Of a stretch of 64,000 nucleotides of DNA, positions 1,777 to 63,092 are shown piece by piece. The translations under genes and the position numbers were made by a program. The notes below the pieces were generated by a model that had not been told where the DNA came from, did no database searches, and worked only from the letters and a program-made list of their open reading frames with translations. Where the stretch lies: assembly GCA_045586185.1 (NCBI GenBank), contig JAZMZV010000246.1, positions 10,945 through 74,944 of the forward strand, written 5' to 3'. Source of the stretch: Thermoguttaceae bacterium (GTDB lineage Bacteria; Planctomycetota; Planctomycetia; Pirellulales; Thermoguttaceae). How positions within the stretch are numbered: position 1 is the stretch's first letter; each line of letters opens with the position of its first letter.

Positions 1777-1875
1777 GAGGCAGTAGGCAAGAGGCAGTAG
1801 GCAGTAGTTTTCGCTTCGCGACTTCTCGCAACTCGCAACTCGCAACTCGCAACTCGCTACTCGCAACTCTCAACT
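1777..1875. repeat. heptamer-array element (GGCAGTA arm / CTCGCAA arm)
   Basis: GGCAGTA/GGCAAGA x4 (1777-1807), centre TTTTCGCTTCGCGACTT, CTCGCAA x7 (1825-1875). The last 7 codons and the TAG stop of the 1857-2717 CDS lie inside the array. Confidence 0.9.
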
Positions 1876-3759: not shown

Positions 3760-3798
3760 GAGTTGCGAGTTGAGAAAAGTTCGGACGGCTCTCAACTC
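3760..3798. repeat. GCGAGTT-type repeat plus hairpin in the glgP leader
   Basis: GAGTTGCGAGTTGAG followed by a 9-bp hairpin GAGTTGAGA/TCTCAACTC (3767-3798, 14-nt loop). The track ORF start at 3770 (TTG) is inside it. Confidence 0.75.
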
Positions 3799-14185: not shown

Positions 14186-15337
14186 ATGGCATTGACATAT
14201 TTAACAGCTGGAGAATCGCATGGAAAAGGCATCCTGGCTTTGCTGGACGGTTTTCCCGCCGGACTGGAAATTGATACAGATAAAATCGACGCGCTGCTTC
14301 GTCTTCGTCAGGGCGGATACGGCCGCGGCGGACGTCAACAAATCGAAACCGATTCCGTCGACGTTCTGACCGGCGTAAAAGTCAACCGGACGCTGGGAAG
14401 CCCCGTCGCCCTTTGGGTGAAAAATCGAGACTATAAACTCCCACAAATGCCGGAACTGGAACGTCCGCGCCCGGGTCACGGCGACCTGTCCGGATCTCGC
14501 AAATATCAAGACGGGATTCGCGCCATTCTGGAACGCTCCAGCGCTCGAGAGACGGCGGCGAAAGTCGCGGCGGGCGCTCTGGCGGAACAGCTTTTGGAGA
14601 CGTGCGCCGGGATTCGCGTTCTGGCTTACGTTGTCCGAATTGGGGAAGCGGAATTGACGCCTGACGCAGCCCTGCTCTGCGATTTTGACGCTGCAATTGA
14701 AAAGCGAAACGCCAGCCCGGTGTATTCGCTGTCTTCTCCCAAAGCTGACAAACTCGCCTGCGATTTAATCGACAAAACCCGCCAGGCGGGCGACACGATC
14801 GGCGGAATCATCGAAATTCGCGCGACCGGTTTGCTGTTTGGGCTGGGAACGCACGCTCAATGGACGGACAAGCTCGACGGTCGTCTGGCGCAAGCCGTCA
14901 TGGCGGTTCAGGCGATCAAGGGCGTCGAAATCGGCTTGGGATTTCAGGCGGGATTCGTACCCGGTTCTCAGGCGCACGACGCTATCGGCTTCGACCCGAA
15001 ACTGGTCGATACAAAATGCCTGGGATTCGTCCGCCCAACCAATCGCGCTGGCGGTTTGGAAGCCGGCATGACAAACTCGCAGGACATTGTCGTCCGCGCT
15101 GCAATGAAGCCGATTCCGACAATGCTCAAACCGATGGCATCTGTCAGTCTGATAACAAAACAGCCCGAGGAGGCGACTTACGAACGTTCCGACGTCTGCG
15201 CCGTTCCCGCCGCCGCGATTGTTTTGGAATCGGTTGTCGCCATGACGCTTGCCACAGCGCTGACGGAAAAGTTCGGCTGTGACAACGTCGAGGAAATTCG
15301 GCAGAGAATTACGTTATTCAACAAATTAGCAAGATAG
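14186..15337 (+). CDS. aroC: chorismate synthase
   Basis: LTAGESHGKG, RPGHGDLSG and SARETAAKVAAGA motifs. Full length, 383 aa. Confidence 0.95.
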   Translation: MALTYLTAGESHGKGILALLDGFPAGLEIDTDKIDALLRLRQGGYGRGGRQQIETDSVDVLTGVKVNRTLGSPVALWVKNRDYKLPQMPELERPRPGHGDLSGSRKYQDGIRAILERSSARETAAKVAAGALAEQLLETCAGIRVLAYVVRIGEAELTPDAALLCDFDAAIEKRNASPVYSLSSPKADKLACDLIDKTRQAGDTIGGIIEIRATGLLFGLGTHAQWTDKLDGRLAQAVMAVQAIKGVEIGLGFQAGFVPGSQAHDAIGFDPKLVDTKCLGFVRPTNRAGGLEAGMTNSQDIVVRAAMKPIPTMLKPMASVSLITKQPEEATYERSDVCAVPAAAIVLESVVAMTLATALTEKFGCDNVEEIRQRITLFNKLAR

Positions 15338-15393
15338 GCAGTAGGCAATAGGCAGTAGGCAGTAGATATTACTCGCAACTCGTTACTCGCAAC
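15335..15393. repeat. heptamer-array element (GGCAGTA arm / CTCGCAA arm)
   Basis: TAGGCAG TAGGCAA TAGGCAG TAGGCAG TAG, then ATATTA, then CTCGCAA CTCGTTA CTCGCAA CC. The aroC TAG stop is the first unit. The array ends 4 nt before ATG 15398. Confidence 0.9.
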
Positions 15394-18084: not shown

Positions 18085-19761
18085 ATGAAACTCGAAAAAG
18101 TTCTGTGCATTGTATTATTATTGACCCTGAGCGTTTCGGGAACGCTCAACGCGGAAGAAAATTCTACGACTAAAAGAAGCATTGAAGATGCCAAGTCCGC
18201 TTTGGGCAAATCGACCGTAGACCGTTTTGAACAGATGTTTCAATCTGGCGATTTTGATTTCAAGACGTATGGAAATCACGGCGTTACAGTTTTACACTAC
18301 GCTGTCTTTATGAACGATCAAGAACGCGTTAAACTGCTAATCGAAAAAGGAGCCGACGTCAATGCCAAGGATATTGACAGTACAACGCTGTTAATGGCTG
18401 CTACTGATAACAACAATCTGGAAATAACAAAATATCTTGTCGAGAACGGCGCTGACGTCAACGTCCCAGACGACGACGGCGATACAGCTGTATTCTTTGC
18501 AGCTCTAAACGGCAATTGGGAAATGGTTCAATATCTTGTCGAGAAAGGCGCAGATATTACAACTAAAAATAAAAATGATAACACAATTTTAAACTTTGCA
18601 GCTCAAAGCGGCAATTTGAAATTGGTACAATGGCTGGTCGATAAAGGAATAAACGTCAACGCTAAAAACGACAGAGAGTATACATGTCTTCACCATGCAG
18701 CTCAAAGCGGCGATCTGGAGCTGGTTCAATGGCTGGTTGAGAAAGGGCTGGACGTCAACGCTAAAACGGATGAAGACTACACATGCCTGTACCTTGCAGC
18801 TCAAAGCGGGAGTCTGGAGTTGGTCAAATGGCTAGTCGAGAAAGGACTGGACGTCAACGCTGTAAGCGAAGACGATTCAACGCCTCTGCACGCGGCAGCT
18901 CAAAGCGGCAAATTGGAACTGGTCAAATGGCTGGTCGAACAGGGCGCTGACATTCATGCCAAAACGTACAGTAGTCAGACTGTATTATGCTATGCAGCTC
19001 AAAGCGGCAATCTGGAACTGGTTCAATGGCTGGTCGAACAAGGGGCTGAAGGCGTCAAAGATTATGACGTTTTGTATGAAGCGGTTCACAGCAGAAATAT
19101 GGAGCTGATTCAATGGCTCATTGATCAGGGCGCAGACGTATCCACCAATTATTCGGTATTGACCAGCGCGGTTTATTATAACGATATGAAGCTGGCGCAA
19201 TATCTTGTTAAACATGGGGCTAACGTGCGAAAGTCTGTTAACGCATTAGATCAAGCGGTATGGTCCGGCAATATGGAAATGCTTGAATGGCTTATCGCTC
19301 ATGGAGCGGACGTCGACAGTAGAGACAGCGAGGGAAGGTCAGTTTTGTGGTACGCTGTCAACAGTAATAATAAGGACATACTGCATTATCTTATCGAGCA
19401 TGAAGGCGTTGACGTCAATTCATACATATATAAATCATCCATATATAATAATAGTTATTTCTCAGCCTTGGAGGAAGCGGTAAACAGAAACGATTTGGAA
19501 ACGGTCAAATACCTGGTGGAACACGGCGCATATATCAATCCGCATCACGGATTTAAATATTATCGCATTCCCGGCTGGTATAATATGGATCATGTTGATC
19601 AGGAAATTGTACAATATCTTAGAGAACGCGATACTGTTCTTAAAGGACTATCAATCGCGGTATGGCTGATAGTTCTGGCGGTTTTCCTGGCAATTGTCTA
19701 TTTTATCTACAGAATGACTCGACCTAAAAAGCCCGCGAAGACAGAATTATCGAGTTCGTGA
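18085..19761 (+). CDS. exported, C-terminally membrane-anchored ankyrin-repeat protein (paralogue 2)
   Basis: Same architecture as 12374-13969: signal peptide MKLEKVLCIVLLLTLSVSGTLNA, a conserved N-terminal segment (VDRFEQMFQSGDFD...TVLHYAVFMND), ANK repeats, and a C-terminal TM helix LSIAVWLIVLAVFLAIVYFIY followed by RMTRPKKP. Confidence 0.9.
   Translation: MKLEKVLCIVLLLTLSVSGTLNAEENSTTKRSIEDAKSALGKSTVDRFEQMFQSGDFDFKTYGNHGVTVLHYAVFMNDQERVKLLIEKGADVNAKDIDSTTLLMAATDNNNLEITKYLVENGADVNVPDDDGDTAVFFAALNGNWEMVQYLVEKGADITTKNKNDNTILNFAAQSGNLKLVQWLVDKGINVNAKNDREYTCLHHAAQSGDLELVQWLVEKGLDVNAKTDEDYTCLYLAAQSGSLELVKWLVEKGLDVNAVSEDDSTPLHAAAQSGKLELVKWLVEQGADIHAKTYSSQTVLCYAAQSGNLELVQWLVEQGAEGVKDYDVLYEAVHSRNMELIQWLIDQGADVSTNYSVLTSAVYYNDMKLAQYLVKHGANVRKSVNALDQAVWSGNMEMLEWLIAHGADVDSRDSEGRSVLWYAVNSNNKDILHYLIEHEGVDVNSYIYKSSIYNNSYFSALEEAVNRNDLETVKYLVEHGAYINPHHGFKYYRIPGWYNMDHVDQEIVQYLRERDTVLKGLSIAVWLIVLAVFLAIVYFIYRMTRPKKPAKTELSSS
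18598..19092 (+). repeat. five tandem 99-bp units (ANK repeats with high nucleotide identity) inside ankyrin gene 2
   Basis: GCAGCTCAAAGCGG...CTGGTTCAATGGCTGGTCGA recurs at 18598, 18697, 18796, 18895 and 18994, an exact 99-nt period. Confidence 0.85.
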
Positions 19762-20441: not shown

Positions 20442-22139
<1,698 letters not shown>

Positions 22140-25706: not shown

Positions 25707-25838
25707 GCTACTAGCCGCTAGCTACTAGCTTCTAGCTTGGTTATTTTAGTTTCTGGCTTTAAAAATTAACGCCGAGAACTAAAAATGAACAAGCTAATGG
25801 CTAGTAGCTAATAGCTAACAGCTATCTACTGTCTAACC
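25707..25838. repeat. ~130-nt GCTAG-family long-hairpin element, copy 1
   Basis: 33-nt arms at 25707-25739 and 25790-25822 (25/33 Watson-Crick; 7 of 8 mismatches are transitions). An inner pair TTAGTTTCTGGC/GCCGAGAACTAA is also present. Homologous to 56909-57030. It fills the spacer between convergent stops at 25706 and 25839. Confidence 0.85.
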
Positions 25839-28518
<2,680 letters not shown>

Positions 28519-28664: not shown

Positions 28665-28676
28665 ATAGATTATTAA

Positions 28677-28735
28677 GTTGCGAGTTGCGAGTAGCGAGTT
28701 GCGAGAATTATCAGTTTATTTAACCACTAACCAAC
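28677..28735. repeat. heptamer-array element (GCGAGTT arm / ACCACTA arm)
   Basis: GTTGCGAGTTGCGAGTAGCGAGTTGCGAG, then AATTATCAGTTTATT, then TAACCACTAACCAAC. The 31-nt left arm is identical to 47013-47043. The track ORF start at 28678 is an artefact. Confidence 0.9.
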
Positions 28736-29315: not shown

Positions 29316-29396
29316 AAATAGGGAATAGGGAATAGTAATTCGGCCTTCGGCGAATTTAAAAACTACTCCCTACTCCCTACTCCCCATTCCCTACTC
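29316..29396. repeat. heptamer-array element (GGGAATA arm / AATTCGGCC hairpin / CTACTCC arm)
   Basis: GAAATAGGGAATAGGGAATAGT, AATTCGGCCTTCGGCGAATT (29337-29356), CTACTCCCTACTCCCTACTCCCCATTCCCTACTC. The TAG stop of the minus-strand hydrolase gene (29391-29393) lies in the right arm. Confidence 0.9.
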
Positions 29397-31986: not shown

Positions 31987-32079
31987 AAGGGAGTAGGGAG
32001 TAGTTTTTAAATTCGCCGTAGGCGAATTACTATTCCCCATTCCCTATTCCCTATTTCCTTCTATTCCCCATTCCCTCAC
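31987..32079. repeat. heptamer-array element (GGGAGTA arm / AATTCGCC hairpin / CCCTATT arm)
   Basis: AAGGGAGTAGGGAGTAG, AATTCGCCGTAGGCGAATT (32010-32028), CTATTCCCCATTCCCTATTCCCTATTTCCTTCTATTCCCCATTCCCTCAC. The track ORF start at 32040 is an artefact. Confidence 0.9.
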
Positions 32080-33165: not shown

Positions 33166-33267
33166 GAGGGAATAGGGAGTAGGGAATAGGGAGTAGAGGC
33201 AATAGGCAGTAGGCAGTAGGCAGTAGGAAAATTTTACTACTGCCTCTTGCCTACTCCCTACTGCCTA
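33166..33267. repeat. heptamer-array hairpin (GGGAATA/GGCAGTA arm, CTACTGC arm) between aspS and lpxD
   Basis: GGGAATA/GGGAGTA x4 and GGCAATA/GGCAGTA x4, loop AAAATTTTA, CTACTGCCTCTTGCCTACTCCCTACTGCCTAA. The arms are largely complementary. The aspS TAG stop (33265-33267) lies in the right arm. Confidence 0.9.
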
Positions 33268-36697: not shown

Positions 36698-36728
36698 CTC
36701 TCGCCACTCGCCACTCGCAACTCGCAAC
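36698..36728. repeat. CTCGCCA/CTCGCAA heptamer arm in the leader of the 1389-aa gene
   Basis: CTCTCTCGCCACTCGCCACTCGCAACTCGCAAC ends 12 nt before ATG 36741. The track ORF start at 36690 is an artefact. Confidence 0.9.
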
Positions 36729-36740
36729 TATTCATTTGAC

Positions 36741-39700
36741 ATGAAATTCACATCATTATCGCCGGAAAACCGTAAACAAGCTGAAAGAGTTCTTGGCTAT
36801 CTTAACTTTTCGACAGGAAGTTTTGATCCGAAGTTTTTCCGTGATTTGGACGATTTATTTTACGATTTGGACATTCTCAATCGGGCGCAGCAGGATCGTG
36901 AAGCCACGTTTATCAAGCAGGATTCTTCTTTATCCGGGGAGAGCAAACAGGCGGTCGCCGATTTGTCAGAGTCATCACAAACCGTTCCGACCTATCAGCT
37001 TCTTTACAATGTTCTCAAAGACGGTCTGAACTATCTTCAACAGGAAACGACAACGTTCAAAAACAACGCTCAGGCTCTCGGCGCTCTCTGCTTTACCTTC
37101 GACCACGTCTTACCGGCATACAAGGAATTTCATAAAGATTTACTGTACCATCAAACGGAAGACTCTCTGTTTACATCGTTTTTTATAGCGCGAACGCTGC
37201 AGTACGTTCTTCAGACGGAAGCGCCGTGGGACGACTTCAAACAGGCGGACATTATTCATCGTCTTAACGACTACGTCGGCTACCGTCCTACGGCGGTTTT
37301 ACACAACCGCCAAAAGATGCAGCCGTACTCTCACGAATTCTTTCAGCCCATTCCTTTATATATAGAAGGCGTTGGCATCTGGAAAGGACCGTATTACGAC
37401 GTCTGCAAAATAGCGTTGGAGATTCTGCACAAAACAGACGACTCCATTTTAACCAGAGCGTACTTCGATCCAGACAAGATGCGTGAATTGGCTATCGACG
37501 TCCGCACGATGGATTTCGATCATCCTGTCAACCGCAGACTCAACTATCCATTTGGTTCCTGGGACGCTTCCAGCGTAGACAACAAAGGCTTTTTCCGTCG
37601 ATATATCATTCATCAAACAACGCTGGACGCCATCTGCAGCCGAACGCTTGGTTCGAATCTGCCTTATGAAGAACTCGTTTATGAAGCAGGCGCCGTTCTG
37701 GCGGGAACCATGCTCATGGGCGCGTCCATTAACGGCTCCAGTCCGGATTCGCATGATAGTTCCGTTACTCTTTCCAAACTGCTGTTGATTGTCGCTCAGT
37801 ATCGAGACGAATTCTACGAATCTCTGATGGAGAAATCCCCGGAGCCAATTCGCTCTCGACTCATTGACGACATCAAAACATACCGACAGCCCTTTGGAGC
37901 GGCGAGACAATATTTTAATCACATCTTGTCCAAACTGCGGGCAGAGCAGCTGCAAAACGTTCAGCTGGCGCGGCTGTACGCCTGGATGGGATATCCGGAA
38001 GCGGCTCAAGACAGAGCCGGTCTGGTTAAAAGCATTTCCGCCCGAATGAGATGTCAGATTGATTGTCTCATTACCAACGCTCATTCTCTTCTCGACGACG
38101 ACTGCGTAGACGAAGTTGTTCCGTTGATTAAACAAGTCGAAACGATTCTGGACGACGGCATTCAGTGCGGAGCCTTTGCCGACCCATGGAATATTCTCGG
38201 TTTTGAAGGACAATTCCCGCTGTTTCATTCCGCAGAAGACACTACGCCAGACCAGCGAATTGACGAACTGATCAATCTCATGGGAGCGATTTTCAATCTC
38301 TATTCCAGAGCGATGCGTCAAGCCGCCGTGTTTAATAAAACGTCGTTAAATGAAAAGTTCTCTGCTAACATGCATCGATTGGCGAACTGGTGGGATCAAT
38401 TCGCCTCAAGCGAGCTCAGTTCCATCGAAAGCATTTCCGGAGAAGAAAGCTGGGAATCCGCCAACCAGGTTGCAGACGCGTTATCCGTTTGGAAAAAAGC
38501 CGGCGCCGCAGCAGGCGACATCAAATTCTGGCGTCCTCAAGTAGAAAACTTCGATTCGACAAAAGCGTACGCGCTGCTAATCGAAGAACTCATGGATCAA
38601 AACGATTACGTTGCCGCGATGGCTCTGCTGATGAACTGGCTTAGCGCGTCAGACGAAATCCTCCTGGACGACGGAGACTATACAATTCATCCGCTAATTC
38701 TTCGATGGATGGAAGAGCAATGGTTTAACTCCACAAAAATTGATCGCATTGAAGGACGGCGCGGCAAAGAGACAAAAGACGGCTGGTCGGCAGCGAAAAA
38801 GTTTATCGATTTCCTCGAAGCCAACGCCGGCGCATACTGGGAAATTCCTCATCTGGAAGTTTCTCAAAACAAGTTCCCGTCTTTTGACGAATTTAAACAG
38901 GGGCTTAAAGACGACTCCGTCGACAGCGACAGCATCGACGATCTGTTTCTCAATTTTATGGGAATGCCCAAGCCCCCTGCCAAGGACGCCAATCCCGACG
39001 ACTTCATTCCTCTTGATGAAAATGAGGAAGATGAAGACTTTGACGAAGACGACGAAGACGAGGACAATCTCTTTCGCAGCGCTTACGAAAACGTAATTTA
39101 TCACGATACAACAGACGACGGAATCGACAGCGACATGATGGACGACAAGTCCGCCGATCCGCTTGGCGATTTCGAACTGACGGATGAAATGGAAAGAATC
39201 AGCGATCGTCTGTTGTTTTGGGTTACGGTCGCTCGACTGTGGAAAATGTCCGCCGTCTTTTCTCTTAACTATGCCGGCGAACATCCTGACAGAGACGAAA
39301 CGCTGCAATCGTGGGCAAAAATCGGGCGAGAAAAACTCTATCAGCTACTTTATCTGGCAAACGAAGTGGAACGGTTCAAGATTTCTGCGCCGTCAGACTC
39401 TCGCCAGTCCATGATCGAATATGAACAGCGCCGTTCAATTAAAGACGCTCTTTTGGAACGGCTCATGTCAACCATTGTCGAAATGGAAGACGTTTGCCGA
39501 ATTCTTGCCGCAACGCAAACAGAACCAATTCCCGCAAAAGACAACTCGTGGGAAACGCTCAATCAACGGATTCTTCAGGCAGTTCTCCATTCAGACGTCG
39601 ATCTGATTCACAAACTATGGCAGCCGTTTTTGGAAGTTCTAAGCGAACAAACGCTGCTGTATCGTCCGATCTCTCGCGGAGGAAGCGTTCAAAAAATTGC

Positions 39701-47119: not shown

Positions 47120-48490
47120 ATGAAACATTTATTATTAATTATCGTCGCCGCGCTGATTAGCGCGTTTTGTCAAACCGAAATCGAGGCGGCTGATCCCGCG
47201 CCGTGGAAAATCGTTTCCAGAGAGAACGTTGCGTCGGTCTGGTCGGGAAATCCCGTTCAGTTTGCGTTCGTTCAAAAAGAAGGCCATCTGTTTATCGGAT
47301 TCTATTCCGGCGAGGACAAGAGCATGGTTATCGGTCAGAAGCAGTTGCCGGACGGCTCTTGGAAGTTCAAAAAACTGGATACGAAAATCGGCTGGGATTC
47401 TCACAATTATATTACCATCGCCTTTGACCGGGACAATTGTCTTCACGTCTGCGGGAACATGCATTGCGTTCCAATGATTTATTATCGATCGGAAAAGCCG
47501 CTGGATATAGATTCTCTTGAACCGATAAATCGCATGACGGCGGCGGGAACGACGATGGAAGAGCTTCGTCAGGCGCAGGAAAACAGAGTTACGTATCCAA
47601 CGTTTATGAGTTCTGTCGACGGAGCTTTGATTTTCACGTATCGCGACGGGGCGTCTGGAAACGGAAGCCAGCTGTGGAATGTTTATGACCCGGATTCTAA
47701 AATCTGGAAGCGGTTTTTGGACGTCCCCATGTTTGACGGCTTGGGGAAATGCAACGCTTATTTTAAAGGTCCGGTTAAGGGTCCCGACGGCTGGTATCAT
47801 ATTGCGTGGGTTTGGCGGGACACTCCGGACTGCGCCACGAATCACGATTTGTCATACATGCGAAGCCGGGACTTGATTCATTGGGAAACCAGCCAGGGCG
47901 CGCCGCTGACACTGCCTGTTACACAGCAGACGGGCGAGGTCGTCGCCCCGCTGAAAAACGGCGAGGGGCTTCTCAATTCGCTGGTTCAAATCGGGTTTGA
48001 TACGCAAAATCGCGTTGTGATAACGTACACGCGATACGACGAAAACAAAAACAACCAAATCATGCAGGCGCGTCTGGAAAACGGCGTCTGGAAATACTAT
48101 CAAACGACGGACTGGACGCATAGCTGGGTCTTCTCCGGCGGCGGGTGCATTCCAGGGGAGTTGTCTTTTTCTGCCGTTCGATCCGAAAACGGGAAGCTGT
48201 ATCAGTCGTGGAATCGGAAATATGAGAAGTCCGGGGACTTTGAACTGGACGGCGAAACGCTCAAGCCCATCGGCGCCGCGCCGCCAAAGTCGAAAATCCC
48301 GGCGGAGTGTTACAAAGTCGAGAATACGCAGGAGAATCAAGGTCGGAAAGTCGCCACGGTAACAGACGCGTCCAATCCAAATCGATTGTACTTTTTCGTT
48401 TGGGAAACGCTGCCGATAAACCGGGATCGACCGCATAACGTCGTCCCGCAGCCCAGCCAGCTGAGAATGTTTGTATTGGAAAGAGAGTAG
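47120..48490 (+). CDS. exported BNR_4-like (BNR repeat-containing family member) protein, probable polysaccharide-active enzyme
   Basis: Start moved to ATG 47120 (signal peptide MKHLLLIIVAALISAFCQTEIEA). HNYITIAFDRDNCLHVCGNMH, FTYRDGASGNG and WVWRDTPDCATNHDLSYMRSRD resemble PF15892 from memory. Confidence 0.6.
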   Translation: MKHLLLIIVAALISAFCQTEIEAADPAPWKIVSRENVASVWSGNPVQFAFVQKEGHLFIGFYSGEDKSMVIGQKQLPDGSWKFKKLDTKIGWDSHNYITIAFDRDNCLHVCGNMHCVPMIYYRSEKPLDIDSLEPINRMTAAGTTMEELRQAQENRVTYPTFMSSVDGALIFTYRDGASGNGSQLWNVYDPDSKIWKRFLDVPMFDGLGKCNAYFKGPVKGPDGWYHIAWVWRDTPDCATNHDLSYMRSRDLIHWETSQGAPLTLPVTQQTGEVVAPLKNGEGLLNSLVQIGFDTQNRVVITYTRYDENKNNQIMQARLENGVWKYYQTTDWTHSWVFSGGGCIPGELSFSAVRSENGKLYQSWNRKYEKSGDFELDGETLKPIGAAPPKSKIPAECYKVENTQENQGRKVATVTDASNPNRLYFFVWETLPINRDRPHNVVPQPSQLRMFVLERE

Positions 48491-48511
48491 TTAGGCAGTA
48501 GGCAGTAGTAA
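48488..48511. repeat. GGCAGTA heptamer arm
   Basis: TAGTTAGGCAGTAGGCAGTAGTAAG begins with the TAG stop of the 47120-48490 CDS. Confidence 0.85.
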
Positions 48512-58765: not shown

Positions 58766-60163
58766 ATGACTCGTTACATCACAACTATCGTTTTTGCTTT
58801 GTTTATCTCGCTGACGTCGGCGCTGTTGGCCGACGAGATGATTCAAGTCGTTAACTTTACCGACGGGACGGAAATTGATTACCCGGTCGCGCTGCTGCGA
58901 GGGCGTCTTTCCGATGAAACCGCAACGGAAATCGTCTGTACGAATTTGTCGTCGCAGAAAGCGTCTCGACAGATTCACGGCGACGCCTGGAAAGGTCAGT
59001 TTAAAGTTCTTGCTGAACTCGTTCCCGGTGAAAACGAACTCGAACTGACAAGCGGAGACAATAAAACAACGCTGAAGCTGAACTACAAAAAGAACTCCAA
59101 TCCGCTGGTCGTCCGCATGATTTACATGACGGATTCCACCGGCGACACGACGTTCCAAACGCCGTATGAAAACGACCCTCAGAACTTCAAGGGCAAGCTG
59201 GACACGGCTCTTAAATTGATGCAGTGTTTTACCGCTGAAACCATGAATGACGCCGGGCTTGGCAGAAAGACGTTCAATCTGGAACTGGACGAAAACGGCA
59301 ACGTCATTGTTCACGTCTTCAAAGGGGAGAAGACGATGGAAGAATACGCCGCTCTTTCTGATAACGAATGGTATTCAACGGTCTATCGGGAAATTTCAAA
59401 TGACTTCCCGTGGTACAATGGGAAGAACCTCGTCATTCCCGCTTACACGCGTTTTGATCCTGAAACCAAACGGGCGAAATGTCACACAGCCCTGGGCGGC
59501 GGAAGTCTGGCTCTGTTTGGATCGGGCTGCATGTACACGTGGCCGGACTCGCTCGACGGCGTTGTCAAGGCGTTTACAGATTCCACGCCCGTTGATAAAG
59601 AACGTTTCCATGACGACACCGCTTTCCGTTCCGTCTATTGGGCAGCGGCGTCAACGACAATCGGCGCGGCTCTGCACGAGTTGGGACACACCTTCGGTCT
59701 GCCTCACTCCAACCAGCCGCGCGACATCATGACCCGTGGAATCGACCAGTTCAACCGCTTTTTCGTTATGCGTGAAGCCCCCAGCCGATACAACCGAGAT
59801 TGGCGGGAAAATTTGGATGACAGAGCCGCCAACTGGTCGCTCATTTCCGCCGCGGCGCTGAACGTCAGCCCGTTCTTCCAGGACGAAGCGCCGGCTGAGA
59901 ATCAAGGAAGAGTTAGTCTGCAGATTGTCGACGACGGGAAAGCTGTTGAGGTCGAGGCGGAAAACGGCATCGCCTATTTCGGCGTTATGTCTGACGGACA
60001 TCGCCAGTATTTCGTTGCCCCTCAACCAGGTCAGGAGCTGCCTAAGCAGATGCGATTCTCCGTTCAGGAACTCAAAGACAACGTCAAAAATATCAAAGGC
60101 AGTTTGGAAATTCACGCCATTGACCGCTACGGAAAGACGAGAAGCGTTCATGTTAGGCCGTAG
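58766..60163 (+). CDS. exported metzincin-type zinc metalloprotease (paralogue 1)
   Basis: Signal peptide MTRYITTIVFALFISLTSALLA. HELGHTFGLPHS (HExxHxxGxxH). 465 aa. Confidence 0.85.
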   Translation: MTRYITTIVFALFISLTSALLADEMIQVVNFTDGTEIDYPVALLRGRLSDETATEIVCTNLSSQKASRQIHGDAWKGQFKVLAELVPGENELELTSGDNKTTLKLNYKKNSNPLVVRMIYMTDSTGDTTFQTPYENDPQNFKGKLDTALKLMQCFTAETMNDAGLGRKTFNLELDENGNVIVHVFKGEKTMEEYAALSDNEWYSTVYREISNDFPWYNGKNLVIPAYTRFDPETKRAKCHTALGGGSLALFGSGCMYTWPDSLDGVVKAFTDSTPVDKERFHDDTAFRSVYWAAASTTIGAALHELGHTFGLPHSNQPRDIMTRGIDQFNRFFVMREAPSRYNRDWRENLDDRAANWSLISAAALNVSPFFQDEAPAENQGRVSLQIVDDGKAVEVEAENGIAYFGVMSDGHRQYFVAPQPGQELPKQMRFSVQELKDNVKNIKGSLEIHAIDRYGKTRSVHVRP

Positions 60164-60238
60164 GGAATAGACAGTAGGCAGTAGTAGTTCGCCTTCGGCG
60201 AATTTCGCTCCTCACTCCTCACTCCTAATTCCTGACTC
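60161..60238. repeat. heptamer-array element (GGGAATA/GGCAGTA arm / TTCGCC hairpin / CTCCTCA arm)
   Basis: TAGGGAATAGACAGTAGGCAGTAGTAG, TTCGCCTTCGGCGAA (60188-60202), CGCTCCTCACTCCTCACTCCTAATTCCTGACTC. The TAG stop of paralogue 1 is the first unit. Confidence 0.9.
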
Positions 60239-60276
60239 AAAACGTTCTATGTATTTCAATTAATCCCCTTTTTACC

Positions 60277-61680
60277 ATGACTCGTTACATTACAACTTTT
60301 GTTTTTGCTTTATTTATTTCGTTGACGTCGGCGCTGTTTGCCGACGAGGAAATTCAAGTCGTCAATTTTACCGACGGGACGGAAATCGACTACCCGGTCG
60401 CGTTGCTGCGCGGGCGTCTTTATGACGAATCCGCAACGGAAATCGTCTGTACGAATTTGTCGTCGCAAAAAGCCTCTCGACAGATTCACGGCGACGCCTG
60501 GAAAGGTCAGTTCAAAGTCCTTGCTGAACTCGTTCCGGGTGAAAATGAACTTGAACTGACAAGTGGGGATTATAAAACAACGCTGAAACTGAACTACAAA
60601 AAGAACTCTAATCCGCTGGTTATCCGCATGATTTACATGACGGATTCGACTGGCGACACGACTTTTCAAACGCCGTATAAAAATGACCCGCAAAATTTCA
60701 AGGGCAAGCTTGACACGGCTCTTAAATTGATGCAGTGCTTTACAGCAGAAACCATGAACGACGCCGGGCTTGGCAGAAAGACGTTCAATCTGGAACTGGA
60801 CGAAAACGGCGACGTCGTCGTTCACGTTATAAAAGGGAAGAAGACGGCGAAGGAATACGGCTCGGTTTCCGATGAAGACTGGTACGACATGGTTTATGAT
60901 GAAATTACGCCCCAGTTCCCGGAAGATTCCGGACGCAACCTCGTCATTCCGTCTTACACGCGTTTTGATCCCAAAACCAAAGAGGCGAAATGTCACACCG
61001 CGCTGGGCGGCGGCTGTCAGGCGCTGTTCGGCTCTGGCTGCATGTATACGTGGCCGGATTCGCTCGATAGCGTTGTCAAGGCGTTTACGGACTTCACCCC
61101 CGTTGACGGCAAACATTTCCATGACGATTCCGCTTACCGTTCCGTTTACTGGGCGTCGGCGTCAACGACAATCGGCGCGTCACTGCACGAGTTGGGACAC
61201 ACTTTCGATTTGCCCCATTCCACCGAACCGCGCGACATCATGACCCGAGGAATCGACCAGTTCAACCGCTTTTTCGTCATGCGGGAAGCCCCAAGTAAAG
61301 AAAACGACGATTGGCTGGAAAACATCGACAACGAAGCCGCCAACTGGTCGCCCATTTCCGCCGCGGCGCTTAACGTCAACCGGTTCTTCCAGGATGAACC
61401 GCCGAAAGACGACGAAGGGAACGTCGACATTGAGCTTATTGACGACAATCAGACCGTTAAACTCGAAGCGGAAAACGGCATCGCCTTTTTCGGCGTCGCG
61501 TCCGGTGAAGATCGTCAGCTGTACGTTGCGCCTCTACCCGGTCAGCCGCTGCCAAAACAGATGCGATTCTCCGTTGATGAACTCAAAGACGGCTGCGAGG
61601 AATTCAAAGGCGACTTGGAACTTCACGTCATGGACCGGTACGGGAAGACGGAGAGTATTCATATTAAAATAAGGGAATAG
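60277..61680 (+). CDS. exported metzincin-type zinc metalloprotease (paralogue 2)
   Basis: Signal peptide MTRYITTFVFALFISLTSALFA. HELGHTFDLPHS. 467 aa. The first ~185 aa are nearly identical to paralogue 1. Confidence 0.85.
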   Translation: MTRYITTFVFALFISLTSALFADEEIQVVNFTDGTEIDYPVALLRGRLYDESATEIVCTNLSSQKASRQIHGDAWKGQFKVLAELVPGENELELTSGDYKTTLKLNYKKNSNPLVIRMIYMTDSTGDTTFQTPYKNDPQNFKGKLDTALKLMQCFTAETMNDAGLGRKTFNLELDENGDVVVHVIKGKKTAKEYGSVSDEDWYDMVYDEITPQFPEDSGRNLVIPSYTRFDPKTKEAKCHTALGGGCQALFGSGCMYTWPDSLDSVVKAFTDFTPVDGKHFHDDSAYRSVYWASASTTIGASLHELGHTFDLPHSTEPRDIMTRGIDQFNRFFVMREAPSKENDDWLENIDNEAANWSPISAAALNVNRFFQDEPPKDDEGNVDIELIDDNQTVKLEAENGIAFFGVASGEDRQLYVAPLPGQPLPKQMRFSVDELKDGCEEFKGDLELHVMDRYGKTESIHIKIRE

Positions 61681-61800
61681 GGAATGGGGAGTAGGGAGTA
61701 GTGGAAAGTGGTTAGTGGTAAGTGGTTAGTGAGATGAACGCCTGCGTCCTTACCACTTACCACTCAAAACTTACCACTCAAAACATACCACTTAGAACTT
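61673..61800. repeat. heptamer-array element (GGGAATA/GGTTAGT arm, CTTACCA arm) containing the 65-nt element 61700-61764
   Basis: GGGAATAGGGAATGGGGAGTAGGGAGT AGTGGAAAGTGGTTAGTGGTAAGTGGTTAGTGAGATGAACGCCTGCGTCCTTACCACTTACCACT CAAAACTTACCACTCAAAACATACCACTTAGAACTT. It ends 3 nt before the umuC ATG. Confidence 0.9.
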
Positions 61801-61803
61801 ACC

Positions 61804-63063
61804 ATGCTCTTCGCTCTGGCTGACTGTAACAGTTTTTACGCGTCGTGCGAGACGGCGTTCAAGCCGTTTCTGCGCGGACGCCCTGTTATTGTCCTGTCGA
61901 ACAACGACGGCTGCGTTGTCGCCAGAAGCCGGGAAGCGAAACAGCTTGGAATCGCCATGGGCGCGCCGTTTTTCCAGATTCGGGAATTTTGCCGCGCCAA
62001 TCGCGTTGCCGTTTTTTCTTCAAACTACGCTCTTTACGGCGACATGAGCCAGCGGGTCATGCAAACCCTGGCGTCTATGGTTCCGGAAATTGAACAGTAC
62101 TCCATCGACGAGGCGTTTTTGAATCTGACCGGAATGAGAAACGTTACAACGGCGTTTGCCGAGTCTATCGTTGACCGCGTCAAGCTCTGGACGGGAATTC
62201 CGATTTCCATTGGAATCGCCCCGACCCGAACGCTGGCAAAAGTCGCCAACCGTCAGGCGAAAATGGACGGCATCAAAACCTGTCTGCTGCTGGACGAATC
62301 CAAACGAATCGACGTTCTGAAACGCTTTCCGGTGGAAGAAGTCTGGGGCGTTGGACGTCAGCTGTCGGTCAAGCTGGAACGAATGGGAATCAGGTCTGCT
62401 TTCGACCTCGCTCAGCAAGACCCGGTTCAAATCCGTAAACGATTTACCGTCATTCAGGAGGCGATGGTTCGGGAACTCAACGGGGAATCCAGCCTGGGAA
62501 ATCAGCAGTCCCCGCCGACGGCGAAAAGCATTCAGACGTCCCGCTCGTTCGGCAAGCCGCGATACGAGTTTGACGCCCTTTCTTCTGCAATTTCGACGTT
62601 CGTTTCCCGCGCGGCGGAAAAGCTGAGGGAGCAGGGACAAGTCGCTCGCGCTGTTGACGTCTATATTCGCACCAGCCCGTTTAGACCGGTCGCGCAATAC
62701 ACTGCGTCAACCGTCGTTCCGCTTGGACGTCCCACCAGCGACACGCTTCTGCTGACGCAAGCGGCTCTTGACGGGCTTGCCAAAATCTTTCAGCCTAACT
62801 TCGCCTATCAGAAAGCGGGAATTATTCTTATTGACCTGTCCTCCGCCGCAGTCAACAGCGCCCAGCTGACCTTTTTCGACGACCCGGTAGAACTGGAACG
62901 CCGCGCCGGACTGATGAAAACCCTCGACCGGCTCAACGAAAAGTTCGGCCGCAGTTCTGTCATGACGGGAACTCAGCTTTTAGACGACTCTTGGAAATCC
63001 GTCCAACAAAACACGTCCCCCCGATACACAACTGAATGGGACGATCTGCCGGTGGCAAAATAG
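61804..63063 (+). CDS. umuC: Y-family translesion DNA polymerase, UmuC-like (Pol V catalytic subunit)
   Basis: MLFALADCNSFYASCETAFKPFLRGRPVIVLSNNDGCVVARSREAKQLGIAMGAPFF is collinear with E. coli UmuC. 419 aa. Confidence 0.9.
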   Translation: MLFALADCNSFYASCETAFKPFLRGRPVIVLSNNDGCVVARSREAKQLGIAMGAPFFQIREFCRANRVAVFSSNYALYGDMSQRVMQTLASMVPEIEQYSIDEAFLNLTGMRNVTTAFAESIVDRVKLWTGIPISIGIAPTRTLAKVANRQAKMDGIKTCLLLDESKRIDVLKRFPVEEVWGVGRQLSVKLERMGIRSAFDLAQQDPVQIRKRFTVIQEAMVRELNGESSLGNQQSPPTAKSIQTSRSFGKPRYEFDALSSAISTFVSRAAEKLREQGQVARAVDVYIRTSPFRPVAQYTASTVVPLGRPTSDTLLLTQAALDGLAKIFQPNFAYQKAGIILIDLSSAAVNSAQLTFFDDPVELERRAGLMKTLDRLNEKFGRSSVMTGTQLLDDSWKSVQQNTSPRYTTEWDDLPVAK

Positions 63064-63092
63064 GCAGTAGGCAATAGGCAGTAGGCAGTAGT
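63061..63092. repeat. GGCAGTA heptamer arm
   Basis: TAGGCAGTAGGCAATAGGCAGTAGGCAGTAGT begins with the umuC TAG stop. Confidence 0.9.

Follow-up and report, generated by a model that had tools for sequence, protein, structure and literature searches.

Stop codons within period-7 spacer repeats of a gut-type planctomycete

The stretch analyzed here, a window of 64,000 bases from a Thermoguttaceae bacterium, is part of contig C246 of genome G000, a metagenome-assembled genome (MAG) of 4.72 Mb in 277 contigs with 49% G+C. The host is a gut-type planctomycete, and the best relatives of its GyrB protein beyond the genus are MAGs of the Planctomycetota, Pirellulales, and Pirellulaceae at 57 to 64% identity. 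Our subject is a class of tandem repeats with a 7-base period (heptamer arrays) that stand at gene ends and many of whose units carry the stop codon TAG, above all the array at positions 60161 to 60187, where one metallopeptidase gene ends and a second follows (Table 1). On the + strand, TAG was read at 60161, 60168, 60175, 60182, and 60185, and because the first three are spaced 7 bases apart, all three reading frames are hit. RNA folding of positions 60150 to 60250 gave a structure of -28.9 kcal/mol (z = -2.6) with the stop codon in the base of the stem. We considered an intrinsic terminator at 60161 and rejected it, as a hairpin is present there but none with a T-run.

Table 1. Genes, repeat arms, and stop codons at the metallopeptidase locus and at the other gene ends discussed, in window coordinates (TRF, Tandem Repeats Finder)
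Feature	Positions	Strand	Basis and remarks
Metallopeptidase gene 1	58766..60163	+	Pfam PF12044, 6.5e-80; ends …HVRP, then TAG
Purine-rich heptamer arm (TAGGGAA, TAGACAG, TAGGCAG, trailing TAG TAG)	60154..60187	+	TRF, period 7, 4.4 copies
Stop TAG of metallopeptidase 1, the first TAG of the repeat ladder	60161..60163	+	Sequence
Central GC mini-hairpin, GTTCGCC-loop-GGCGAA	60187..60203	+	Core of the fold that starts just 5' of the stop codon
Pyrimidine-rich heptamer arm, CTCCTCA units	60208..60238	+	TRF, sequence; 39 bases 5' of ATG 60277
Metallopeptidase gene 2	60277..61680	+	Last two codons and stop (AGG GAA TAG) are repeat-unit sequence
Purine-rich arm 3' of metallopeptidase 2 (GGGAATA, GGGAGTA, then TAGTGGT units)	61672..61731	+	TRF, sequence
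aroC TAGGCAG array, first TAG is the stop	15335..15365	+	TRF, sequence
umuC TAGGCAG array, first TAG is the stop	63061..63091	+	TRF, sequence
BNR_4 gene: stop TAG, one T, TAGGCAG array	48488..48508	+	Pfam assignment; stop 4 bases before next TAG, out of register
aspS array (sense TAGGCAG, TAGGGAG), first TAG is the stop	33237..33267	-	Sequence
Array after the 29391-30365 gene (sense TAGGGAA, TAGGGAG), first TAG is the stop	29363..29396	-	TRF, sequence
gyrB stop TAG (25839-25841), then (sense) degenerate units and a TAGCTNT array	25792..25841	-	Sequence
DUF2344 gene, TTGCGAG array (sense) over last ~5 codons, …VESCE; variant TAGCGAG unit is the stop	1825..1875	-	TRF, Pfam

The two metallopeptidases keep their length. 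In six congeners the same number of residues follows the conserved GKT motif of the first protein, and across the paralogs of all species a fixed 7 or 9 residues lie past GKT. The last residue (E, Q, or D) tracks the type of array unit while protein length stays unchanged.

Throughout, period-7 arrays were located with TRF and proteins were assigned by Pfam profile matches. Genes were called with a custom codon-usage caller, which returned 2,893 genes on 80% of the genome, ending in 1,482 TAA, 782 TAG, and 629 TGA stops. Orthologs were compared in eight congeners and in 16 other genomes from the same family and order; in addition, 760 kb of congener G005 was compared with G000 and yielded 334 reciprocal-best ortholog pairs.

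A first-pass annotation of the window had named eight genes whose terminating TAG is part of, or directly abuts, an array. The open reading frame (ORF) list and the sequence place TAG at the named position in 8 of 8. Six of these stops stand in the 7-base register of their array (aroC at 15335, the metallopeptidases at 60161 and 61678, umuC at 63061, and, on the - strand, the 29391 gene and aspS at 33265), and the other two, at 48488 and in gyrB at 25839, only abut it and are out of register.

For aroC, the array-bearing congeners all stop at the first array TAG, with units that differ by species and an end that varies by 0 to 2 residues. UmuC ends (VAK or VVK) at the same position in seven congeners, with the DUF4113 profile extending to residue 418/419, and in the array-less congeners G001 and G002 umuC still stops with TAG, and one unit-like GCAA or ACAA comes after it. 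The protein of the 29391 gene keeps its length in 7 of 8 congeners; in G001 another array replaces its terminal 2 to 4 residues. AspS ends in …RKEE and TAA in G002 and G004 and in …RKEEN and TAG in G000 and four congeners. At this junction G002 reads TAA, T, TAGGCAA, versus AAT TAG GCAG in G000, so that a 1-base difference puts TAA out of frame, the first array TAG takes over, and one residue is gained. The BNR_4 protein retains …LERE in 6 of 8 genomes, with either TAG or TAA (TAA in G004 and G006). The gyrB stop stands 6 bases before the next array TAG; GyrB ends in NLDV in 24 of the 24 genomes compared, and five congeners stop with TAA. Given this conserved end, the position of the gyrB stop is conserved and the array merely abuts it.

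At the DUF2344 gene, about five terminal codons are encoded by the array, not the seven first proposed, and the stop is a TAGCGAG variant within an otherwise stop-free TTGCGAG array. Congener proteins end in …KIEISGEE or …DIEISS, tails that differ by 2 to 4 residues. The window also holds counterexamples, in which a TAA or TGA stop precedes an array by 3 to 8 bases: 22211 (- strand), 29308, 53827, 54019 (- strand), and 58623.

Neither a stop nor an ATG occurs in any frame of the complementary CTCGCAA, CTACTGC, and CCCTATT arrays, as the first-pass annotation had noted. The attached claim that ORFs therefore run on upstream through such arms holds at 32040, 36690, 47090, and 52162. At 28678 the extension passes through the stop-free TTGCGAG array, and at 3770 there is no array.

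The repeats extend far beyond the window. Counting exact arrays of at least 3 units in the genome, we found 319 at period 7 versus 0 to 7 for periods 5, 6, and 8 to 11. TRF located about 2,000 period-7 arrays, and 1,129 of 1,788 merged arrays are wholly intergenic. Almost half (972 of 2,041) have 4.x copies, about 4.3 to 4.7 with modes at 4.3, 4.4, and 4.6, corresponding to ~30 to 33 bases. This four-unit preference includes units free of G tracts, such as CTCGCAA; examples in the window lie at 15335-15365, 20533-20562, and 36700-36729.

Arrays are also strongly polar. Purine-rich GGCAGTA, GGGAATA, GGGAGTA, TAGCAAT, and TTGCGAG arrays, read in the sense of the gene, follow stops, and their complements precede starts, so that after-stop units have 32% G and 14% C and before-start units have 14.5% G and 32% C. 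This is expected if every spacer element runs purine arm first and pyrimidine arm second whichever strand is read; a gene that ends at either flank would then always meet the purine arm. One array in the window is an apparent exception to this polarity: at 28676-28705, in the divergent spacer beside gyrB, a purine-type TTGCGAG array lies 42 bases 5' of the + strand start ATG 28747.

A period-7 array lies within 200 bases past the stop of 767 genes, and in about 500 genes an array starts within 15 bases of the stop, with starts concentrated from -6 to +9 bases relative to it. The stop falls inside a period-7 array in 176 of the 2,893 genes (about 6%). TAG makes up 80% of these stops (141 genes), versus 22 to 23% in 2,219 array-free genes, a contrast in TAG usage that is nondiscriminating because a stop in a TAG-bearing array is TAG by construction. 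Register can be counted as well: another TAG stands 7 bases past 96 of 780 TAG stops, whereas 35 of the 2,111 stops of the other two kinds have one there (p about 1e-29; odds ratio, 8.3). The association of stops with arrays is real and highly nonrandom.

Heptamers in this position are not confined to the genus. CTCGCAA arrays occur in 7 of 8 congeners; the other genera searched lack them, apart from one to four stray matches in three genomes. G008, the sole congener without CTCGCAA arrays, carries an 18-base tandem repeat (CTTATTAGAC…GTAAAA) after aroC and no heptamers there. Within the family and order, G009, G011, G012, G013, and G029 have heptamer arrays directly after stops, with units such as GATGAAG, GCGTGAG, TGACCAA, TGGNCAG, and GGATTAG. 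The habit of placing heptamers after stops is thus much wider than this genus.

The first-pass annotation had proposed that arrays have repeatedly redefined protein C-termini. This is borne out at a small scale, in that length differences are enriched at in-array stops, and it does not describe most of the eight named genes, which end at a conserved position. Among G000/G005 pairs, C-terminal length differs in 17 of 38 in-array pairs (45%) versus 39 of 209 array-free pairs (19%; odds ratio, 3.5; p = 0.001), with a mean shift of ~1 residue and a largest shift of 9. An in-array stop typically lies 0 to 3 residues from the conserved C-terminus. Array-less orthologs of genes with in-array TAG stops end in TAA (7), TGA (3), or TAG (5), near the genome baseline, which indicates that TAG mostly arrives with the array and that arrays are not drawn to genes that already end in TAG.

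The repeats leave recognizable tails. Unrelated proteins (for example, on contigs C1, C15, C111, C112, and C134) share array-coded ends: AVGSRQ and AVGNRQ, from GGCAGTA and GGCAATA arrays; ISN, from TAGCAAT; SCE, from TTGCGAG/TAGCGAG; and VRN, from GGAGTNA-type arrays. A C-terminal RQ occurs in 30 of 176 in-array genes versus 10 of 2,219 array-free genes. Between G000 and G005, spacers are wholly replaced and unalignable, and the flanking genes are mostly 82 to 99% identical. The breakpoints of these spacers fall at or within the last codons of one gene and just 5' of the next start.

We compared observed and expected trinucleotides in after-stop units by shuffling letters within each unit, which keeps its composition. 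Any stop codon occurs in 67.6% of after-stop units versus 52.6% expected from shuffles. TGA is present in 3.3% versus 20.6% expected and ATG in 4.6% versus 20.6% expected, and TAA units are at the composition expectation. TTGCGAG, with about 70 arrays, is the commonest after-stop family without TAG, and TTGCGAG/CTCGCAA, the largest family of arrays overall, has no stop on either strand; two further after-stop families also have none. In G009, which represents another genus of the family and has polar period-7 arrays of different units, 53% of after-stop units contain a stop versus 53% expected, in a small sample of 400 kb with 45 after-stop arrays.

Two simple sources of the TAG units were rejected on these numbers. 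Composition alone accounts for the larger part of the any-stop content and for the absence of stops and ATG from pyrimidine arms, which are without ATG, TAG, and TGA because they are G-poor; it does not explain the TAG excess of this genus. A unit built from any stop codon plus four bases is incompatible with a six-fold depletion of TGA and with TAA at expectation.

The explanation we favor, with a probability of about 68%, is that the stop supply is a side effect, arising passively from the polarity, composition, and turnover of the repeats, and not an evolved termination device. Intergenic gaps are filled with period-7 arrays that form the arms of hairpin-like spacer elements, with a fixed polarity of purine arm 5' and pyrimidine arm 3' on either strand. 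Most purine-rich units in the genus contain TAG (TAGGCAG, TAGGGAA, TAGGGAG, TAGCAAT, and others), and since 7 is not a multiple of 3, a frame entering a TAG-bearing arm closes within 21 bases. These C-poor units are probably related to one another, with TAG in common; that common descent caused both the excess of TAG and the depletion of TGA and ATG is our guess. The spacer elements would turn over very fast, by replacement, small indels, and homogenization of units, beside genes that remain 95 to 99% identical, and purifying selection on the proteins would restrict the possible positions of the junction between gene and array. Loss of the stop or of the last dispensable codons to the array would be tolerated, as translation meets a new stop immediately in the arm, and the stop codon, sometimes with 1 to 6 terminal residues, would thereby be absorbed into the repeat. 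The array counts, the ortholog comparisons, and the composition controls given above are direct observations; in what order events took place at a given junction, and that the arrays have no function, we infer.

Several points weigh against this explanation. Genes end on the first TAG of a ladder in 96 cases, on the second in 52, and on the third in 18, where random entry predicts equal thirds; selection for short tails could produce this skew, as could anchoring of arrays at TAG stops. At a given site, arrays of unrelated unit families replace one another without any shift of the TAG junction, which hints at a TAG-specific joining or insertion step. TAG is present in 54.7% of after-stop units versus 20.7% expected, a 2.6-fold excess in this genus that persists at the level of unit families with at least 5 arrays (56% versus 21.5%). 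The material itself sets bounds as well: the G009 sample is small, and the custom gene caller is rough, with calls on 80% of the genome and small genes missed. It overlooked the Y1 transposase genes, for instance, so small or atypical genes are undercounted.

Among the competing explanations, the one that survives best, and that we nonetheless consider unlikely, holds that TAG stops already in place anchor or seed the arrays, through duplication of the stop with the four bases after it or through insertion or recombination specific to TAG. The preference for the first ladder TAG fits this idea, as do the aroC, umuC, and 29391 sites and several G000/G005 pairs, where different unit families meet at an identical TAG junction and the C-terminus is unchanged. 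The array-less umuC of two congeners, which keeps TAG and the unit-like GCAA or ACAA, can be read in the same way, but this state resembles a deletion derivative. A precedent exists in GTAG-tagged repetitive extragenic palindromes (REPs), which are cut at GTAG by REP-associated tyrosine transposases (RAYTs) and supply TAG stops (PMC3733652); here, however, the eight Y1-transposase-like genes are flanked by other hairpins and not by heptamer arrays. Seeding from stops in general predicts many TAA and TGA units, contrary to the composition controls, and the units belong to families shared genome-wide rather than being local inventions. Only 5 of 15 array-less orthologs end in TAG, close to baseline, where anchoring would call for existing TAG stops. 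No alignment of empty and filled sites for target duplications was obtainable from G000 and G005, as whole spacers have been swapped.

A related proposal, which we rate as rather improbable, places selection at the level of the element. The TAGs of the 5' arm would be selected because an all-frame stop, together with a 3' arm free of stops and ATG, lets elements swap harmlessly; joining would be TAG specific, which would account for the unshifted TAG junction when unrelated unit families are exchanged, and the use of TAG over TGA would have a mechanistic rather than a historical cause. If true, such selection would permit wholesale spacer swaps between congeners.

The first-pass annotation had also suggested that arrays are selected as frame-independent termination backstops, and our data do not support this. 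In its general form, TAG arms would be kept by host-level or element-level selection against read-through, frameshift, or stop loss, which we regard as doubtful. TAG does exceed the composition expectation in this genus, 36 to 40% of array-adjacent genes versus 5% of array-free genes have every frame closed within 30 bases past the stop, the preferred length of at least 4 units suffices to close all frames, and at aspS an array TAG takes over when TAA falls out of frame. Against this stands the depletion of TGA, which a backstop would have no reason to avoid, and the excess of any stop is small (68% versus 53%). Closure of every frame within 30 bases is also limited to about 40% of array-adjacent genes. 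TTGCGAG (69 to 71 arrays) and two other families are stop-free, and the sister genus G009 has no stop excess. Within units, TAG positions are no better conserved than the rest (mismatch rates of 6.6% versus 7.5% at the other four positions; p = 0.15). The stop-free GGGAATC repeat of Xanthomonas has the same polarity, proximity to stops, and four-unit preference (PMC4692102). Termination machinery is normal: an altered code or weak termination at TAG was rejected, since the genome encodes RF1 as well as RF2 and no suppressor tRNA was found in it.

That the pattern is an artifact of chance, assembly, or ORF calling is scarcely credible: the genome is a 277-contig MAG with custom gene calls, and a stop inside a TAG-rich repeat is trivially TAG, but the arrays and their junction types are found again in seven congeners assembled independently, period 7 outnumbers each of the other periods more than 40-fold, the in-register excess has p about 1e-29, and the proteins have strong Pfam matches and conserved orthologs.

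Repeats that supply stop codons have already been published for TAACTGA heptamers and for GTAG-tagged REPs, and the same behavior is therefore known. TAACTGA direct repeats occur in marine Beggiatoaceae, some cyanobacteria, and Bacteroidetes (MacGregor 2015, Front Microbiol, PMC4679880). Like the arrays here, they are intergenic tandem 7-base units that bear stops, in sets of 2 to 6 units (PMC4679880). The arrays of our genome likewise have stops in all three frames and overlap upstream stop codons, a likeness of behavior only. In contrast to the many families found here, the TAACTGA repeats form one unit family (with TAA and TGA), mostly just upstream of starts and in forward orientation; neither a central hairpin nor a pairing of purine with pyrimidine arms is described, and C-terminal turnover is unquantified (PMC4679880). 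The TAACTGA unit is not among the heptamer families of genome G000.

REPs with a GTAG tag, together with RAYTs, are palindromic spacer repeats found mostly downstream of genes, including in Planctomycetes (Di Nocera et al. 2013, BMC Genomics, PMC3733652). GTAG occurs in many units here as well (GGCAGTAG, GGGAGTAG). A REP is a single 20- to 40-bp palindrome with one unpaired GTAG (PMC3733652), unlike the multi-unit arms of the present arrays, in which every GGCAGTA or GGGAGTA unit contributes a GTAG. A TAG stop is supplied by the REP terminus and, here, by the array in 141 genes, which does not show membership in the same class. The genome has eight matches to PF01797 (IS200/RAYT-like Y1 transposase), on contigs including C208, C19, C225, C90, C15, and C136. 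The C208 copy (about 37029-37866) has GTAGCCCGG…CCGGGCTAC hairpins on both sides, in a REPtron-like arrangement, and long GC-rich palindromes lie on either side of the C19 copy. As these Y1-transposase-like genes are flanked by other hairpins and no heptamer arrays, a link to RAYTs and REPs was rejected.

G-rich heptamers are known from Xanthomonas (GGGAATC) and Nostoc [GGGGA(C/T)T] (Rehm et al. 2015, PLoS One, PMC4692102). The Xanthomonas repeat resembles ours in period 7, in polarity, in lying near or overlapping stops, and in its ~four units (PMC4692102), and, as here, the repeats of that study do not stay with the same genes from one species to the next (PMC4692102). It differs in being a stop-free unit that cannot close frames (PMC4692102), whereas many families are present here. 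The quadruplex explanation given for those repeats needs G3 tracts (PMC4692102), which GGCAGTA and TTGCGAG lack. By sequence, G3 tracts are found in GGGAATA and GGGAGTA arrays and in none of the GGCAGTA, TAGCAAT, or TTGCGAG arrays. The four-unit preference extends to units free of G tracts, which the quadruplex explanation cannot cover.

Two further systems are similar in part. The short tandemly repeated repetitive (STRR) heptanucleotide sequences of heterocystous cyanobacteria are reportedly abundant, lineage-specific, intergenic tandem heptamers of unknown function. They share with our arrays the intergenic tandem heptamer and differ in their units, and we know of no description of stop codon supply by STRR repeats. 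REP hairpins located about 15 nt or less from a stop codon are said to stall terminating ribosomes; in the present genome, too, a structured spacer repeat starts a few bases from the stop. A literature search on planctomycete heptamer repeats found no paper.

Two other repeats were encountered. A second dispersed element, starting with (A)ATGGAAGGCGGTAACGRAG and not a heptamer array, stands right after stops in G000, G002, and G005, and three tandem copies of it follow the Y1-like gene on C90. Inside the gene at 18085-19761, positions 18590-18938 contain 3.5 tandem copies of a 99-base unit, a spacing that corresponds to a 33-residue protein repeat.

The arrays reveal no new termination mechanism, as two published repeat systems behave alike. 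For annotation, ~6% of stops and up to six terminal residues are repeat-derived in this clade; with such ends, and with ORFs that run on through stop-free arms, gene callers and orthology pipelines will misplace starts and report false C-terminal differences between close relatives. For evolution, this is a measured case of spacer repeats altering protein ends, with C-terminal length change ~2.4 times higher where the stop lies in an array (45% versus 19%) and with the size of each change capped by the all-frame stops.

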